Made by a program: the position numbers and the translations under genes. From Octopus vulgaris (lineage: Eukaryota), in contig OX597830.1 of assembly GCA_951406725.2 (NCBI GenBank), positions 4,898,001 through 4,962,000 of the forward strand: 64,000 bases of DNA, written 5' to 3'. This document shows, one piece after another, positions 23,201 to 33,894 of this stretch (position 1 is its first letter; the number at the start of each line of letters is the position of its first letter). Under the pieces are notes generated by a model. The model was not told the DNA's origin, did no database searches, and saw only the letters and a list, made by a program, of their open reading frames with translations.

Positions 23201-26200
23201 AGGTTGTGTATGTCAATGAGTATTGTGTGGATGATAGGTAGAGAGGATTGTGATGGAGAGTTTATTGTTATAACAGAAAAGAAACAAGGAAAGAAAGTGA
23301 TGTGCTTTGAAGAACTGTAGAAAAGAGTTCAAAGATTGGTAGTGAGAAAAAGGAAAAGAAGGTAATAAAGGTGTCAGGAAGGGTTGTAAGTGAACTTTAG
23401 GAAAACTAAAGTAAGTGGAACCAAGTGAATAATGTCACCTCTTTGGTAATTACTATAGTTAGATGTATGGAGGTTGTGTCTAGAAATACTCAATTGTTTT
23501 CCTCTACAATCTACATTTTCTTGTGTCTTTTTATTTAAGTTCCTTCCAGTATTCTCATGGAAGAAGCTTATCAAAATATCATCGTTATCTTCCATAGAAG
23601 ATTTCAATCCTTTTCCCATACAATTCATATTATTTTGTGATGTTTTCCTACTTCGATATCTTCCACCATTTCTCAACAGACATATCATCTACTTAGAAGA
23701 GAAAGACCCTGTGCAAATTTTTGTTCCGATTCTAGCAAACAACTCAAAACCCATATCAGACCAATGAACGCAAGAAATAAAACTGAAAACTCATACAAAC
23801 ACTACTCCTAATAGAACTGTATGCCCAGTCAGCTCACTTGCACTAATAATGTTTAGAGAGACTATTACAATAAATGTTTTTATGTAAATATATTTAAAAA
23901 CAACATTCCTTTATATAACTCTTGATATGTAATAAAAGAATGTTAATCTTTAGAAGTGGATTCTTAGAAATTTTGGTTGTGTTTTCTGTCACTTAGTATC
24001 TTGACTACTTCCATGTAGTTTACATAGATTCAACATTTGCTCATGCAGTCAGGGCCTCCAGTTATCTCTCTTATATCACTAACTTTCATAAGCCACACAC
24101 ACACTGTAACGAGGAGAAGGGGGAGGATTATATAATAACCTCGTTAGAAAATTGTTCTTATGACCAAACAGTGCAAGCTTCGTTTGATAATTTGAATGTA
24201 GAAGATCATTATTTATGGAAATATCGTTTACATGAGAAGAAATATGTGGAGAAAATGAATTGCAGAAAAGCAAATGGAATAAAATAAACTGAATGAAACT
24301 TAGATAAAGGTCGTGAATGTATTTAGAAAGAATATCATTTCCTGAAAGATGTAAATATTTCTGATGCCAGTTGAAACCAAATTCTTTCTAAAGTTCTATA
24401 GTTCTTCATTTGTGCAATCCTATTTGGTGTTCTCATAGGAGACAACCTCTTATATATGTTTGCAAACACACTTGCTTCTAGGTTTGATTTTAAATCTTCC
24501 AAGCTGGTAGAATCATTGGGACTCACAAAAACAGTCCTTGCAGTATTTCTTCTGGGGTCTTATTCATTTTATCTTATTAAAGGTGATTACATTAAATCCC
24601 AGTCAAATATAGGGAACAACAGTATCAAGTAGACCCCTCCCCTCAAAAAATCACTAGCCTTTCACCCATATTAGAAATTATTATTATTACTATTCTGTCT
24701 CATATTCACGTTGTACCTGAACTTCACATCTCTCTCTCTCTTTCTCACTTTCCAGGTGGGTAGGCCATGTATTCACCTCTTCAGCAAAATACCTGCCCCT
24801 GTCCTCTATCAGAATTTCTTATTCTTCCAGGCTATATGCTACTCAGTTGGGTGGGTGTTATTTTGCAGGTGTTTGGTGACCTCACCATTGCTGATGGCAC
24901 ATAGAAAGCCCCCAGTACACTCTATTAAGGGGTTAGCATTAGGGAAGGGAATCTAGTTGTAGAAACCTTGCCAAAGCTGACATAGAACCTATTGAACCAT
25001 CCACTGCATGCCAGCATGGAAAAAAAGGACATCAAATGATAATGATGTTGAAGAAGAAGATGGTGACCTGAAAGAATTATGAGTGAGTGGAGAAAATGCC
25101 TCTTTACACTTCAAGTTCAAATTCCACTGAGGTCAACTTTGCCTTTCACTCTTTCAGAGTTGATAAGATTAGTACCAGTCAAACAACCAATGTAGTTAGC
25201 TTGCCTGGCCTCCCTAAACTTGCTGTCAAAATTTGGAACCTTTATTATTCTACTATTAATGTTTAGAATCCAGCAGCATTTCCTAATCAGAAATGTCCTT
25301 TGTTATTTCATAAATTCTACAAATCCCTTAAATAGGATAAGTTATATAATTGTTAATTATTAATATTATAGAGCATACATTTAATAAGTTGCATTTTTCA
25401 CCTCAACTTCACCATTAATTAGATTTGTAAGACTGTATTAATGAAAATGCTTGATAAAAATCACTGAAAATACTTGCCACATTACATTACCTAACGAAAT
25501 ATGAAATGTTTCTTTTATCAAATATATAGAATAATGGCACCAATTCTTTGTAGCAACAATTATGGTGTTCTAACTAAATACATTAAAAGTTGTCTCAACT
25601 TTCAACAATCTTTTTGGGTTCTCATATCTTTTAGTTTATCAATGGATTATCATTTGTGATTAGAGTTAAGTGCAAAAAAAAAAAACCGTATGCTATTTAT
25701 ATTTATTTTTATTTTTCCCCCACATAACTTCAATTTTTCTGACATTTACACATTTTCAATACAAAATAATTGTTGGTTTTAACACAAGGCATACTAAGAC
25801 TGTATTCTTTTATATAAAAATGACACTGAAAAAATAGAATGAAATAAAAGAATTTAAATATTATAAAGCTGAATGGGAAAATTGTTTGATAATCTTTTTG
25901 TTTTTGTTAAGCACACAGAACTAAGATAACATGTTATATTGTGACTGAGTGCTACAGTAGATGATATTATCATCACCATTCTTTTGAACTTAAACGGTAA
26001 ACTTAACAGGCCTCAGTTCAAATGTTATTCCTATTACTAAGTAATCATCAGAATTGTTTGCTTTGATAGCAAGTTTTGTTTTGCTGTACTAAAAATTGTT
26101 TAAATGATTGTCAGTTGTATCACCTCAAGTCTAATCATGAATAACCTTTCAGGATGTTGCAGTAGATAAATATTTCTTAGATTTTTCTGATTTCTTTGTG

Positions 26201-26299: not shown

Positions 26300-26465
26300 C
26301 ACTTGGTGCCATGTGAAAAAGCATTCAGTCCACTCTGGGGAGTGGTTAGTGTTAGGAAGGGCAAAACGGACACAGTAGCCTGGGTTAGTCTTCTGCCAGG
26401 CCAGTTCTTGTCAAACTGTCCAACCCATGCCTGCATGGAAGGCGGACGTTAAACAATGATGATGT
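26300..26465 (+). mobile_element. RTE-type 3' tail / SINE fragment
   Basis: gttaggaaggg...tgtccaacccatgcctgcatggaaggcggacgttaaacaatgatgatg. Confidence 0.75.
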
Positions 26466-26704
26466 AGACATAGGCTCAGCTAACAATATGTGACTGGTGC
26501 CAGGATATATAATACGGATCACACATTTAATTAATCAGAAAGGAGTACAAATAATTAATCTATCCAAAGAATTTCATACTGAGCTTTCCGTTCAGCCATC
26601 ATGAGCAAGGTCAAGTTGGAGCAATGTCTTCTGTGTGTAATATTTATAATTAACAACATCATTTCATTATCCTAACCATGTCTTGTTTTTCTATTTGGTT
26701 TTAG

Positions 26705-26811
26705 CTATCACTGGATTGTATCCGGATTTGGTTTATGTAAACCTTCCTCTGTAACAACAAACTGTGGTCCTGGTCTGCAACAGCGCACAGTCATATGCGT
26801 AGAGGAAACTG
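26705..26811 (+). CDS. THSD7A: Internal coding exon encoding a thrombospondin type-1 (TSP1) repeat; THSD7A/THSD7B-like protein
   Basis: Acceptor 'tcttgtttttctatttggttttag' and donor 'G|gtgagt'. The phase 2 to phase 1 exon reads YHWIVSGFGLCKPSSVTTNCGPGLQQRTVICVEET. The YxW...C-x8-CGxGxQxRxVxC pattern is a TSP1 repeat, and the long spacer before CGxG is typical of THSD7 rather than ADAMTS (CSxTCG). The gene symbol is a family-level inference. Confidence 0.8.
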
Positions 26812-28544: not shown

Positions 28545-28760
28545 AAGGGACTGAGCTGGCAGAACTGTTAGCATGCCAGACAAAATGCTGCCAAACATTT
28601 TGTCTGTCTTTACGTTCTGAGTTCAAATTACACTGGGGTCAGCTTTGCCATTCATTCTTTCAGTGTTAACAAAATAAGTACCAGTTGAACACTGGGGTTG
28701 ACTTAATTGACTCAACTGCTCCCCCAAACCTGCTGGCCTTGAGCCAAAGTTTGAAACCAA
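28545..28760 (+). mobile_element. tRNA-derived SINE (GCCTTTCATCC-core family)
   Basis: gagctggcagaactgttagcatgccagacaaaatgc...gagttcaaatt...aagtaccagttgaacactgggg. Confidence 0.8.
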
Positions 28761-28852
28761 TATTTACAATCTTAAACAGGATTAATAAAATCTATGTTGG
28801 TTTATATAATTTTCCCCATACCTGCATTATACCATATATATATATATATATA

Positions 28853-28990
28853 TAATTTATTTTATAGAAGGAGCTTCTACAGGACTAGAACTGTTTCATT
28901 CAAAAGAAATCATCAGGAAGCGCTTCCTGATGATTTCTTTTGAATGAAACAGTTCTAGTCCTGTAGAAGCTCCTTCTATAAAATAAATTA
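28853..28990. repeat. Perfect 138-bp palindrome (69-bp arms, no spacer)
   Basis: Centre GGAAGC|GCTTCC at 28921/28922. Every base i pairs with base 57843-i from 28853 to 28990. Confidence 0.97.
28922..28970 (+). ncRNA. Type-I hammerhead ribozyme with intact CUGAUGA/GAAA/GUA core (mirror copy on the minus strand at 28873-28921)
   Basis: gcttc-CTGATGA-tttcttttgaat-GAAA-cag-ttctagtc-ctg-TA-gaagc. Stem I gcttc/gaagc; stem II ttc/gaa (non-canonical U-U at 10.1/11.1); stem III ACAG/CTGT; predicted cleavage after A28965. Confidence 0.75.
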
Positions 28991-29053
28991 ATTTACTCTG
29001 CTATGTATTGAGTACCTTATTTACTGTGGTTAACCCCGACTCAACCCGGGACC

Positions 29054-29132
<79 letters not shown>

Positions 29133-29876: not shown

Positions 29877-31213
29877 TATATATATCAATCATTTGTTTCT
29901 CTAGACTTGCTGATCATAATCCCTGAGAAAGTTTTCCAAACTTCTCCATTACCTTCAGGGCATTTTCTGAATCCATCTCAAGCATCTTTTCTTCTCTCCT
30001 ACCGCCTCTATTGATTATCACGTCGGTCACCTCTCTATTAAGTAGTTTCTATAACCTACCTATGTTCACCTGGTTGGTTTGCACCTGGGTATTACTTAGA
30101 TTTGACTTGTAACTTCAACTTTCCTTCTCTAATGATATGGAGTGTCAATACAAGTGTGGTACGTAAAGATTTCTATCTAAAAGCAAAATAACATTTTTTC
30201 TTTCTTTCTGTATTTTTGCATTTCAAATGACTGGTAACTTTTTGTTGCTTTTTTGCTATTTTTTTTATGTATGTAGTCTTTTTAATTTCATCTTGTTACA
30301 ACTTTTCTTTAGCAATGCATAACTGATATGCCAAACTAATTTCATACAAGTTCCATCATGCAACAGGAATATATTACACACACACACACAGCTATAACTG
30401 TGCATGAGAACGTGTGTATTTACATAGATATATGAGAATAGCTATGTATATCGCAGTATAATTGTGTATGAGTATGTTTATGTCAATACAAAAGATATAT
30501 GAGAGGAGGTGTGTATATGAATATATATACTTGGGGATGAGGGCAAGTGAATGTATGTACGTATGTATATGAGAATAAGAACACACACACACATATGACT
30601 ATGTGGTTGTGTATTGGAGACATGCACATTTGTATATTGCTGCACAATTGTATAACATCTTTATGTACAAACATGTATGTATGTATGGCTATATATTTGT
30701 ATATAAAAACATCCAAATGTATAGACATAGATTTATGAGAGTAAATATGCATCTATGTTAGCAGAGTCATTAGACCATTGAACAAAATGCTTTGTGATAT
30801 TTGTTCTGGCTCTGTAAATTCTGAGTTCAAATCCCACCAATGTCAGTTTTGTCACTCATCCTTTCTGGTTCAATAAATAAAGCACCAGTCCACTACTGGA
30901 ATCAATTACACTTCTCTCTTTAAAAAATTGGTTTAATACAGACCTTAAGAGGGATGGGTTCTGACATGTTTAAAAGTACCCAGTTCAGGTCCCAACAGTA
31001 CCTACAATTCCATGAGAACTCAAAGATCTAAGGAAATATTATATATCATAAAAGTGGGCTTGATTAAGAGCAGGTTGACTAAGTAAAACACATCACATTT
31101 AAAGCTAAGTCCATGTGAGGAAATGAACAACTGAAAATCAATCAATCTTGCTATGCTACCACTGCTGGCAGTAAGCAATTGCTCCTACATATTTACTAAC
31201 AGGTGGACTGATT

Positions 31214-31427
31214 CAAGGGGCTAAACACAGAGATGACAAACAAGGACAGACAAACTGATTAAGTCGATTATATCGACCCCAGTGCGCAACTGGTACTTAA
31301 TTTATCGACCCCGAACGGATGAAAGGCAAAGTCGACCTCGGCGGAATTTAAACTCAGAACGTAATGACAGACGAAATACGGCTATGCATTTTGCCCAGCA
31401 TGCTAACATTTCTGCCAGCTCGCTGCC
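31214..31427 (-). mobile_element. tRNA-derived SINE (GCCTTTCATCC-core family), young copy
   Basis: Reverse complement of the near-full-length copy at 62511-62740, with many CpGs retained. Confidence 0.9.
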
Positions 31428-32034: not shown

Positions 32035-32420
32035 GCAAACACTTGTGCCCATGCTAGTAGGGTGCTAAGAGCACCATCTGAGTGTGATCGTTGACAGAGC
32101 AGTCAACTAGCTTCCGTGCCGGTGGCACGTAAAATGCACCATTCGTGTGTGATCGTTACTGGCACCTGTGCTGGTGGCCTGTGTAAAAAGATTTGAGCGA
32201 GGTCATTGCCAGTACTGCCTGACTGGCCCCGTGCTGGTGGCATGTAAAAAGCACCCACTACACTCTCGGAGTGGTTGGCATTAGGAAGGGCATCCAACTG
32301 TAGAAACTCTGCCAGATCAAGATTGGAGCCTGGTGCAGCCATCTGGTTTGCCACCCCTCTGTCAAAATCGTCCAACCCATGCTAGCATGGAAAGCGGACG
32401 TTAAGCGATGATGATGATGA
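32035..32420 (+). mobile_element. RTE-type 3' module / SINE with (GAT)n tail, young copy
   Basis: ggcacgtaaaa...cactacactctcggagtggttggcattaggaagggcatccaactgtagaaactctgccagatc...ccaacccatgctagcatggaaagcggacgttaagcgatgatgatgatga. Confidence 0.9.
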
Positions 32421-33894
32421 CATCAGTGATAGGAAGGACATAAACTATTGCCTCAAAGTGCATTGTTCAATCTATGCCAGCAAGGAAAAAAAAATGGACA
32501 TGATGATGATGATGGGGAGGAGGAGAAGTTAAAGTGGGAAGGAGAAAGAGGGAGGAGTAAGGGGAGAGAATGATTCCAATGACATGAGAGGGTTAATGCT
32601 ATGTTTAATTTTTTGCATAATTAATTAGTAATGGCAACATTTCAAACAGACATTTCACAACACCAAGCAACGGAATTCACTACAGACGTATTGATAATTT
32701 CAGAAAACATGTAAACATACCATTATTTGCACTCAAATCTAATTAGTAATAGTTCTTCTTAATCATCTAGTGATATCAATATAAACATTGCTATATCTGG
32801 TTAATATTAAAGGCATTAGATTTTAGTTTCCGATTAATAGTTTGAGATTTCTTGAACTTTGAATTGTGATTTTCATTGCAATATTAAGTTGTTTACCATT
32901 CTTGCTCACTACTTTATAATCCCCCAATAACTGCTTTGACATTTTCCTAAATAATAACATACTTTGTCAAGAATCAAATGGAATGTTCCATTCTAGATTG
33001 TTCTGTGGATAAATGGTTTCTATTGATTACAGAAATTAACATGTCAGCTGAATACGTCCAGAGTTTAATTAAATAAAGGCTGAGCAGTTGTAATAAATGA
33101 CTGAGAGCCATTTGTCACTCTGTGCCAGAAACATTCTTAAGGCTGTCATAGTAATGGTAGTATTACTAAAAGACAACAAACACACTCCATTTTGTTCCAT
33201 TTATATTTCAAGTAAATTTTCTGTTATTCCATGTATAACATGACAACAATTATTTAGACTTTGACAAATTAGGTTTTGTCAATCCAGTCATTGTGTATAG
33301 CTAAAATACTATAACCCCATCATTATTTATACACTAACCAAGTCCATTCTATATTTTCCCAATCCTCTACCCACATTCTTTGAACCTGCAACTCCTCTGC
33401 GGCAAGGACATTATTCTGTTCTGGCCCCTCCACAATCTCTTATTTCTTTACATGAAGTCACATTTCACTCTACTGCAGCCCCCACTCATTTGAAAGGGAT
33501 CATTGTGTTGTGAGCTTTATAGCAATCTCACTCATGTTGGTCTCATGGGAAAAGTAATCAGTAAACTCTATAAAACGGATGATGTTAAGAAGAGTCTGCA
33601 ATTGTGAAAACTACGCTAAAGCAGACATTGCAGCACCATGCAGTTCTTGGACCCATTTGACCATGTCAAACCATGCTACCCAAGTCAGCATGGAAGATGG
33701 ATGTTAAATAATAATGATGACTATGATGGTGATGGCAGTGGTAACAGTGGTGATGAAGAAAATGAGTAAATCAGAGGCTGTGTGCTATCAATGTACAAGC
33801 TATGCGATGAGGTAGACTCATTCTTTTATACGATATAAACGAACTAATGTTAGAATCCTAGATATGAGCGTTTGCTCTTGTCCTCATGTGAAGA

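Follow-up and report, generated by a model that had tools for sequence, protein, structure and literature searches.

A perfect 138-bp palindrome in a stretch of 64,000 nucleotides of Octopus vulgaris DNA (the window) lies within a stub that, judged by sequence, belongs to a young family of Hydra-clade Penelope-like elements (PLEs). Our main reading, to which we assign a probability of about 0.72, is that a capped sense RNA would be copied from both cut strands of a (TA)n target and the two cDNAs joined head to head. The hairpin is probably a by-product of copying, not a safety switch for the ribozyme that it contains. The locus itself is ordinary, a young and unexceptional copy. The statistics of its family bear on how PLEs make inverted repeats and terminal pLTRs and on the role of their hammerheads, matters called unresolved in the available text of PMC8557442, PMC11167929 and PMC3846280, and the genome yields predictions at nucleotide resolution: an RNA that begins at -6, RT that begins at +61 and +134, and a G derived from the cap.

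A palindromic stub in the window

Positions 28853-28990 are identical to their own reverse complement, as the original prediction had stated. The next-best palindrome in the window outside microsatellites is 32 bp long, and the predicted fold of the 138 bp (-109.2 kcal/mol, z -25.8) was equalled in stability by 0 of 200 shuffles. The same prediction had taken these positions as the whole unit; the palindrome is as described, but the element runs on past 28990 in a tail that reaches about 29059, and the arm that bears this tail matches L087, a full-length copy, at 96% over 139 nt. The complete unit, 28853-29059, thus comprises a short inverted arm and an arm with a 65-70-nt tail, set in (TA)n (Table 1), and the outer end of the tail falls in AT microhomology with the target.

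Table 1. Features of the window (positions within it) and mirror-image tandem arrays elsewhere in the genome. Family coordinates take 0 as the first C of the hammerhead core (C3), window position 28927, so that predicted cleavage falls after +38 (28965).
Feature	Position	Strand	Basis or remark
Left (TA)n target remnant	28834..28852	.	sequence
Short inverted arm, family -5 to about +61/63, tail absent	28853..28921	-	palindrome symmetry, arm alignment
Mirror hammerhead motif, predicted minus-strand cleavage after 28878	28873..28921	-	palindrome symmetry
Head-to-head junction, both arms beginning at -5	28919..28924	.	one base inside the family edge at -6
Long arm, -5 to about +132: hammerhead, spacer and tail	28922..29059	+	96% over 139 nt to the L087 pLTR
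Type I hammerhead motif, Hydra-clade form, predicted cleavage after A28965	28922..28970	+	sequence, fold prediction
PLE "tail", on one side only, between two putative RT initiation sites	28991..29059	+	family ends; short-read contigs
Right (TA)n target remnant	29060..29130	.	sequence
Dispersed repeat family 1	25101-25189, 28597-28715, 30811-30899, 31259-31377		one copy 140 bp left of the palindrome
Dispersed repeat family 2	26339-26471, 32268-32423		
Mirror-image tandem array L269	G000:C2:64627600-64633000		277-bp units, 12 counted
Mirror-image tandem array L270	C5:37480600-37490500		333-bp units, 22 counted
Mirror-image tandem array L271	C8:91474400-91484300		271-bp units, 25 counted

The hammerhead elements listed in the original prediction were all found again by manual reading and are conserved in the family. 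In the right arm, helix I (28922-28926 paired with 28966-28970) leads into the core CUGAUGA, followed by helix II (a 3-bp stem with a 4-nt loop, bounded on each side by U), GAAA, helix III and a GUA cleavage site whose last base is A28965; CUGANGA, GAAA, NUH and three helices together make the core of a type I hammerhead. The proposed check against Rfam models went the other way: no hammerhead was found above threshold, the sole match being a partial one to Hammerhead_3 at 12.8 bits (E 2.2; gathering threshold 48.5). Since Rfam makes no call, the motif is called from the manual reading together with family-level conservation. In place of the G10.1-C11.1 pair there is a U·U, as in most Hydra-clade motifs; the prediction had noted this mismatch correctly, but it is not peculiar to the window copy, most Hydra-clade hammerheads reading CUGANGAU...UGAA (PMC8557442 File S2, as far as available). 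Common variants within the family alter only N7, loop II and loop III, the pattern that would be expected under selection in active elements.

Published metazoan PLE hammerheads cleave weakly in vitro, and minimal ones poorly on their own (PMC4209133, PMC11167929; available sections). For the present family, tandem arrays and a predicted dimer pairing over the helix III region (-14.2 kcal/mol) are indirect hints of self-cleavage. In the window copy, the hammerhead fold is predicted to be excluded by the hairpin, in agreement with the earlier expectation that the hairpin would win: its predicted probability is 0.049 for the motif alone and 5e-73 inside the palindrome, with an energy gap of about 100 kcal/mol between the two folds. 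As a microRNA precursor the sequence falls short, with a generic hairpin match to MIR7533 (67 vs 230 bits). The copy starts at -5, has no extra G at its junction and has no TATA box of its own. With no promoter, and with both hammerheads predicted to stay trapped in the hairpin, the stub is probably inert except as double-stranded RNA, should a host intron be transcribed through it.

Elsewhere in the window, an exon-like stretch with AG/GT ends (26705-26811, plus strand) gives a weak match to TSP1_ADAMTS (E 5e-4, under the Pfam cut-off), and a motif scan of the window found no second TSP1-like exon. Two further dispersed families of short repeats are SINE-like by appearance (Table 1).

A Hydra-clade family that routinely leaves hairpins

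Family matches were counted by pattern searches of the 2.8-Gb genome. A 26-nt core pattern with at most one mismatch gave 3,270 matches (control, 0) and a tail pattern 5,807, so the search for other copies that the original prediction had proposed did recover them, non-palindromic full-length ones included. Many core matches are minus/plus pairs a few bases apart, typically with one arm extending into a common 65-70-nt extension and its partner stopping early. Pairs several kilobases apart flank an open reading frame (ORF) for a reverse transcriptase (RT) and endonuclease, and these full-length relatives, with the ORF between hammerhead repeats, bear out the suggested PLE origin of the hammerhead. 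In L087, the most complete copy examined, direct repeats (pLTRs) with hammerheads surround a 713-aa ORF; its start codon is some 177 nt past C3, whereas the ORF of the Anolis Poseidon element PAc starts inside the hammerhead (PMC11167929). The family unit is about 4.8 kb long, with a microsatellite-rich 3' region.

We assigned the family to the Hydra clade using the motif definition of PMC8557442. The 713-aa ORF has RT motifs and a YIG motif, the single-ORF structure of an EN+ PLE; inverted ends in L035, L089, L090 and L095, with a tail on one side, give the corresponding layout. By eye, the protein carries the RWK-type motif (RWR in the window's family, RWK in a sister family), DKT, a CxCX5C linker, and CxxC and CxH around E and N, and has no CCHH; the (TA)n preference and a pLTR hammerhead are also Hydra-like. 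HTH_animal, RVT_1 and GIY-YIG domains are present in Atlas look-alikes of the ORF (0.96-0.99). The ORF itself gave no RT match in sequence searches of Pfam and PDB, and BLAST against another PLE RT gave only E 0.059. Asymmetric ends (+61 and +134), varying centres and membership in an RT element argue against a MITE or other DNA transposon.

Such elements generally target (TA)n and have a tail on one side and inverted copies truncated at the 5' end (Craig et al. 2021, PMC8557442). Hydra-clade PLEs, which include Hydra-1_Obim of Octopus bimaculoides, have the same C-terminal endonuclease and the same RWK-type, DKT, CxCX5C, CxxC and CxH motifs, and are alike in (TA)n targeting, a pLTR hammerhead with U·U flanking helix II, and an inverted copy with a tail. 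They differ in having a unit of less than 3 kb (about 4.8 kb here) and a tail of 30-40 nt (65-70 nt here), and the Hydra-1_Obim entries differ in N-terminus and hammerhead. The available text of PMC8557442 describes neither stub hairpins nor a 5' edge. From these sequence comparisons, ours is a new family of a known kind, distinct from the listed Hydra-1_Obim. A sister family (L091-L094, L147-L216), with 9,228 genome matches, an ORF of about 711 aa and 43% protein identity, has a tail of about 70 nt and a hammerhead that is very small, its helix II being 2 bp long with A·A at its flank, and forms the same stub hairpins. A different PLE-like ORF, with a YLDD RT and a GIY-YIG endonuclease with a CxxC linker, is nested between two Hydra-family ends at L032:3499-5824 (minus strand).

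Stub hairpins were counted in 83 arms, namely 82 of the first 100 listed tail places plus the window copy, all samples being drawn from the first part of contig C1. Nine listed places were skipped because they were already in the core set, a bias against the stub result, and the last nine were left out; local duplicates (L059/L060, L135-L137) and L122, mis-extended into AT-rich sequence, were kept. A short inverted partner was present in 50 of the 83 arms (about 60%), and both hammerheads were whole in 24. Perfect spacer-less palindromes of at least 100 bp accounted for four, the window copy among them. Thus, the stub hairpin is a routine outcome of insertion by this family. Applying 60% to the 5,807 tail matches would give some 3,500 short near-perfect hairpins in the genome, extrapolated from one contig, and such stubs are a possible source of double-stranded RNA for editing.

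Arm-to-arm conversion, offered earlier as one way to account for zero mismatches, is not needed. Core arms are identical in 13 of 27 scorable hairpins, compared with 107 of 702 between-locus pairs, and both arms share a subfamily signature in 23 of the 27, as expected if both were copied from one RNA source. Stubs have two fixed outer ends, +61 and +134, with centres that vary from locus to locus, and the same two ends recur in short-read contigs from four runs (all data from short-read runs being contigs).

We consider it highly improbable that the palindrome at the window locus is a fold-back or assembly artefact. The tail is asymmetric, the flanks differ on the two sides, the family has many independent centres and its ends recur in four independent short-read runs, even though no read across the exact locus was seen and the assembly may carry hairpin-linked errors. 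Those errors are single-G deletions at +39/+42, beside the cleavage site, present in about 18 of 99 short arms (L037-L145) and 0 of 20 long ones (p 0.04). We rejected them as a scar of copying across cleaved RNA, none reaching 2% or more in the four short-read runs; they are probably assembly errors, perhaps from systematic misreading of hairpins by long reads, or a lineage difference. The same deletions swamped a search for further clustering of 5' ends at the cleavage site. The few copies that start at +38/+39 (L251, L256, L261, L096) are confounded by (TA)n microhomology.

The original prediction had proposed that a host-relevant ribozyme is silenced here by its antisense arm and freed by A-to-I editing. 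The hairpin does dominate the predicted fold, the position is probably intronic, and RNA of the family gives hints of the kind foreseen: two runs guessed to be RNA have six A>G places each, compared with 0 in two DNA runs, and T>C at +47/+50, a weak signal with unmatched DNA. As an observation on the full-length copy, A>G and T>C are enriched at L087:1507-1523, 1576, 1585, 1642 and 1645 in these runs (X9 and X17) relative to the DNA runs. These differences may reflect A-to-I editing of family RNA from both strands, and they belong to the family, not to the window locus. As a function of this locus, the idea has very little to recommend it when such stubs make up most sampled arms, the copy is young, unexceptional and without a TATA box, some 100 kcal/mol would have to be overcome, edited fractions at arm sites are 1-9%, and published minimal PLE hammerheads cleave so poorly alone. 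A regulatory role for the window locus is not supported.

A sharp 5' edge and an extra G

The 5' ends of the sampled arms have a sharp boundary 6 nt upstream of the catalytic core: 37 of 83 fall at -6 to -2, 22 of them exactly at -6, and none at -7 to -14, while 20 run past -37. The stop rate is 0.119 per nt at -6 to -1 and 0.003 at -36 to -7, an approximately 37-fold difference. Self-complementary words just upstream of the edge are unused, so microhomology alone does not set it. Where copies retain the upstream sequence, a TATA box lies 29 nt upstream of the edge, and the spacer from it to A-6 is 22 nt in 69 of 69 matches with 15 sequence variants (19-27 nt allowed), some of these matches being array repeats. 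In the short-read contigs, depth steps up 2.7-3.9-fold at -6/-5 in three of four runs and weakly in X17 (134 to 186), with loose 5' ends at -8 to -4, within 2 nt of the stop. We infer a transcription start at A-6, where helix I begins. The Penelope element of D. virilis, unlike our reading here, has a TATA-less internal promoter (PMC2377424, available part).

The AG at -6/-5 might alternatively be a splice acceptor, with stubs made from spliced RNA or splicing intermediates. A YAG stands a few bases before helix I in both families, and the D. virilis Penelope intron ends at helix I (PMC4209133). We think this most unlikely: there is no common upstream exon among the 83 arms or 100 rows with an extra G (below), the arms retain the AG that splicing would remove, long copies are collinear upstream of the edge, and the sister edge lies 5-6 nt before the sister AG. 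A shared upstream motif in L038 and L109, entertained as a spliced exon, proved to be a subfamily variant.

Arms that start at -6 often carry one untemplated base. Among all 86 such arms genome-wide that follow eight A/T, the base at -7 is G in 48, T in 18, C in 13 and A in 7; the template has T, C or rarely A there, and no templated copy has G. Control truncations at +3 to +14 have an untemplated G in 1 of 36 (Fisher p 4e-9, or 1e-7 without 10 ambiguous or duplicate rows). By hand count, the G follows a strict (AT)4 in 35 of 47 rows; (AT)n-GG was seen in 0 of 12 rows. The element's own upstream sequence is missing from every one of the first 100 of 905 G rows, although about 40 of these are ambiguous in that the G could also belong to the inverted arm. 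The ORF-bearing copy L262 also begins (AT)n-G at -6, and G precedes A-6 at four of seven internal jump junctions. In full-length L1 insertions, an extra G derived from the mRNA cap marks the 5' junction (PMC11702581, available part).

In the sister family the edge lies at -17, on an initiator-like motif, with 32 of 92 arms ending at -13 to -17, two at -18/-19 and none at -20 to -38 (92 arms from 70 loci; several widely spaced pairs were left out, so that the long-to-short ratio is unrepresentative). An extra G was counted by hand in 5 of 100 AT-rich junctions and 26 of 100 others, where A was commoner at 41. AT microhomology may mask the G. The sister family thus shares the edge, and the extra G is not clearly replicated there.

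A different origin for the inverted half is self-priming or fold-back, on an antisense template or of cDNA on helix I, as proposed on an antisense template for rotifer Penelope (PMC3846280). In the window's family a C follows the 3' strand of helix I, and fold-back by one base would therefore add the same G, and 3 of 100 G rows have longer upstream sequence matching helix I. We regard this as unlikely. A single G dominates after (AT)n, with 35 cases and no GG; the sister edge is about 9 nt upstream of the sister helix I; the edge keeps a fixed distance from a sense-strand TATA box; and the tail can be on either arm relative to the ORF (L035 vs L089). Taken together, the edge, the TATA spacing and the extra G point to a capped, uncleaved, sense-strand RNA template copied from both target strands.

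Proposed two-sided copying of a capped RNA and its relation to known systems

In the reading that we prefer, the element's enzyme would cut both target strands in a (TA)n tract, and RT would begin at internal sites, +61 for one strand and +134 for the other, by analogy with the anole PLE. It would then traverse the uncleaved hammerhead and halt at the cap, leaving "strong-stop"-like cDNAs of about 67 and 140 nt that both end at -6, the cap often being copied as one extra base. End joining, often through 1-4 nt of microhomology, would produce a palindrome whose centre varies and which has a tail on one side only; to make long promoter-bearing copies, the enzyme would have to jump between templates or copy a circular one. 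Seven head-to-tail dimers (L217, L219, L235, L236, L241, L249 and L266) have a copy from -6/-5 preceded by a piece ending at +147 to +441, which suggests template jumps at the RNA 5' end.

Several systems share parts of this scheme; the papers cited here and above were available in part, and statements about them refer to those parts. The Anolis element PAc (Frangieh et al. 2024, PMC11167929) has two internal RT start sites bounding its tail, as we propose here, an AT-rich target that is cut and extended on both strands in vitro, and a preference for uncleaved RNA, its hammerhead cleaving only with protein; the available text mentions neither a cap stop nor the joining of copies head to head. 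Penelope elements of Adineta vaga (Arkhipova et al. 2013, PMC3846280) have the same head-to-head inverted pLTRs, palindromic junction and optional tail. Their palindromes were explained by antisense self-priming, with a sense template left open; the present data favour a sense, capped one. Full-length and twin-primed L1 (PMC11702581) resembles our reading of the family in the cap-derived G at complete 5' junctions and in priming at both target ends. L1, however, primes at poly(A) and its pieces do not overlap, whereas here both pieces copy the same 5'-terminal stretch, and hence the palindrome. In the literature within reach, most subscription papers lying outside it, we saw neither a cap stop nor strong-stop products reported for PLEs, nor did we find the 5' edge and extra-G signature in print.

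More tentatively, and short of an even chance in our estimation, PLE pLTRs may act like retroviral LTRs. TATA-driven capped RNA beginning at helix I would give paired strong-stop cDNAs, one on each target strand, from two internal sites; a jump to the redundant 3' copy, or else a circular RNA made by the hammerhead, would give promoter-bearing full copies and long mirror arrays; and the thousands of stubs would be failed transfers that record the cap. If true, this would replace antisense self-priming and provide one mechanism for pLTR, tail and inversion.

Non-LTR retrozymes (Cervera and de la Pena 2020, PMC7229834; Li et al. 2026, 10.64898/2026.07.22.740005) are likewise small non-coding PLE-linked repeats with type I hammerheads. 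The window copy differs from them, being a promoterless head-to-head stub and not a tandem unit, but the window's family also has tandem arrays of 271-333-bp units (Table 1) in which at least two co-oriented hammerheads lie head to tail, as in retrozymes. Their units are pLTR mini-units of promoter, hammerhead, tail and ORF start, near-identical on both arms, and each array has one private junction on both arms and the usual two outer ends. By analogy with retrozymes in the same two reports, rolling-circle copying of a circle made by the hammerhead is one possible origin of the arrays; they could also reflect successive template jumps or unequal crossing-over at a later time.
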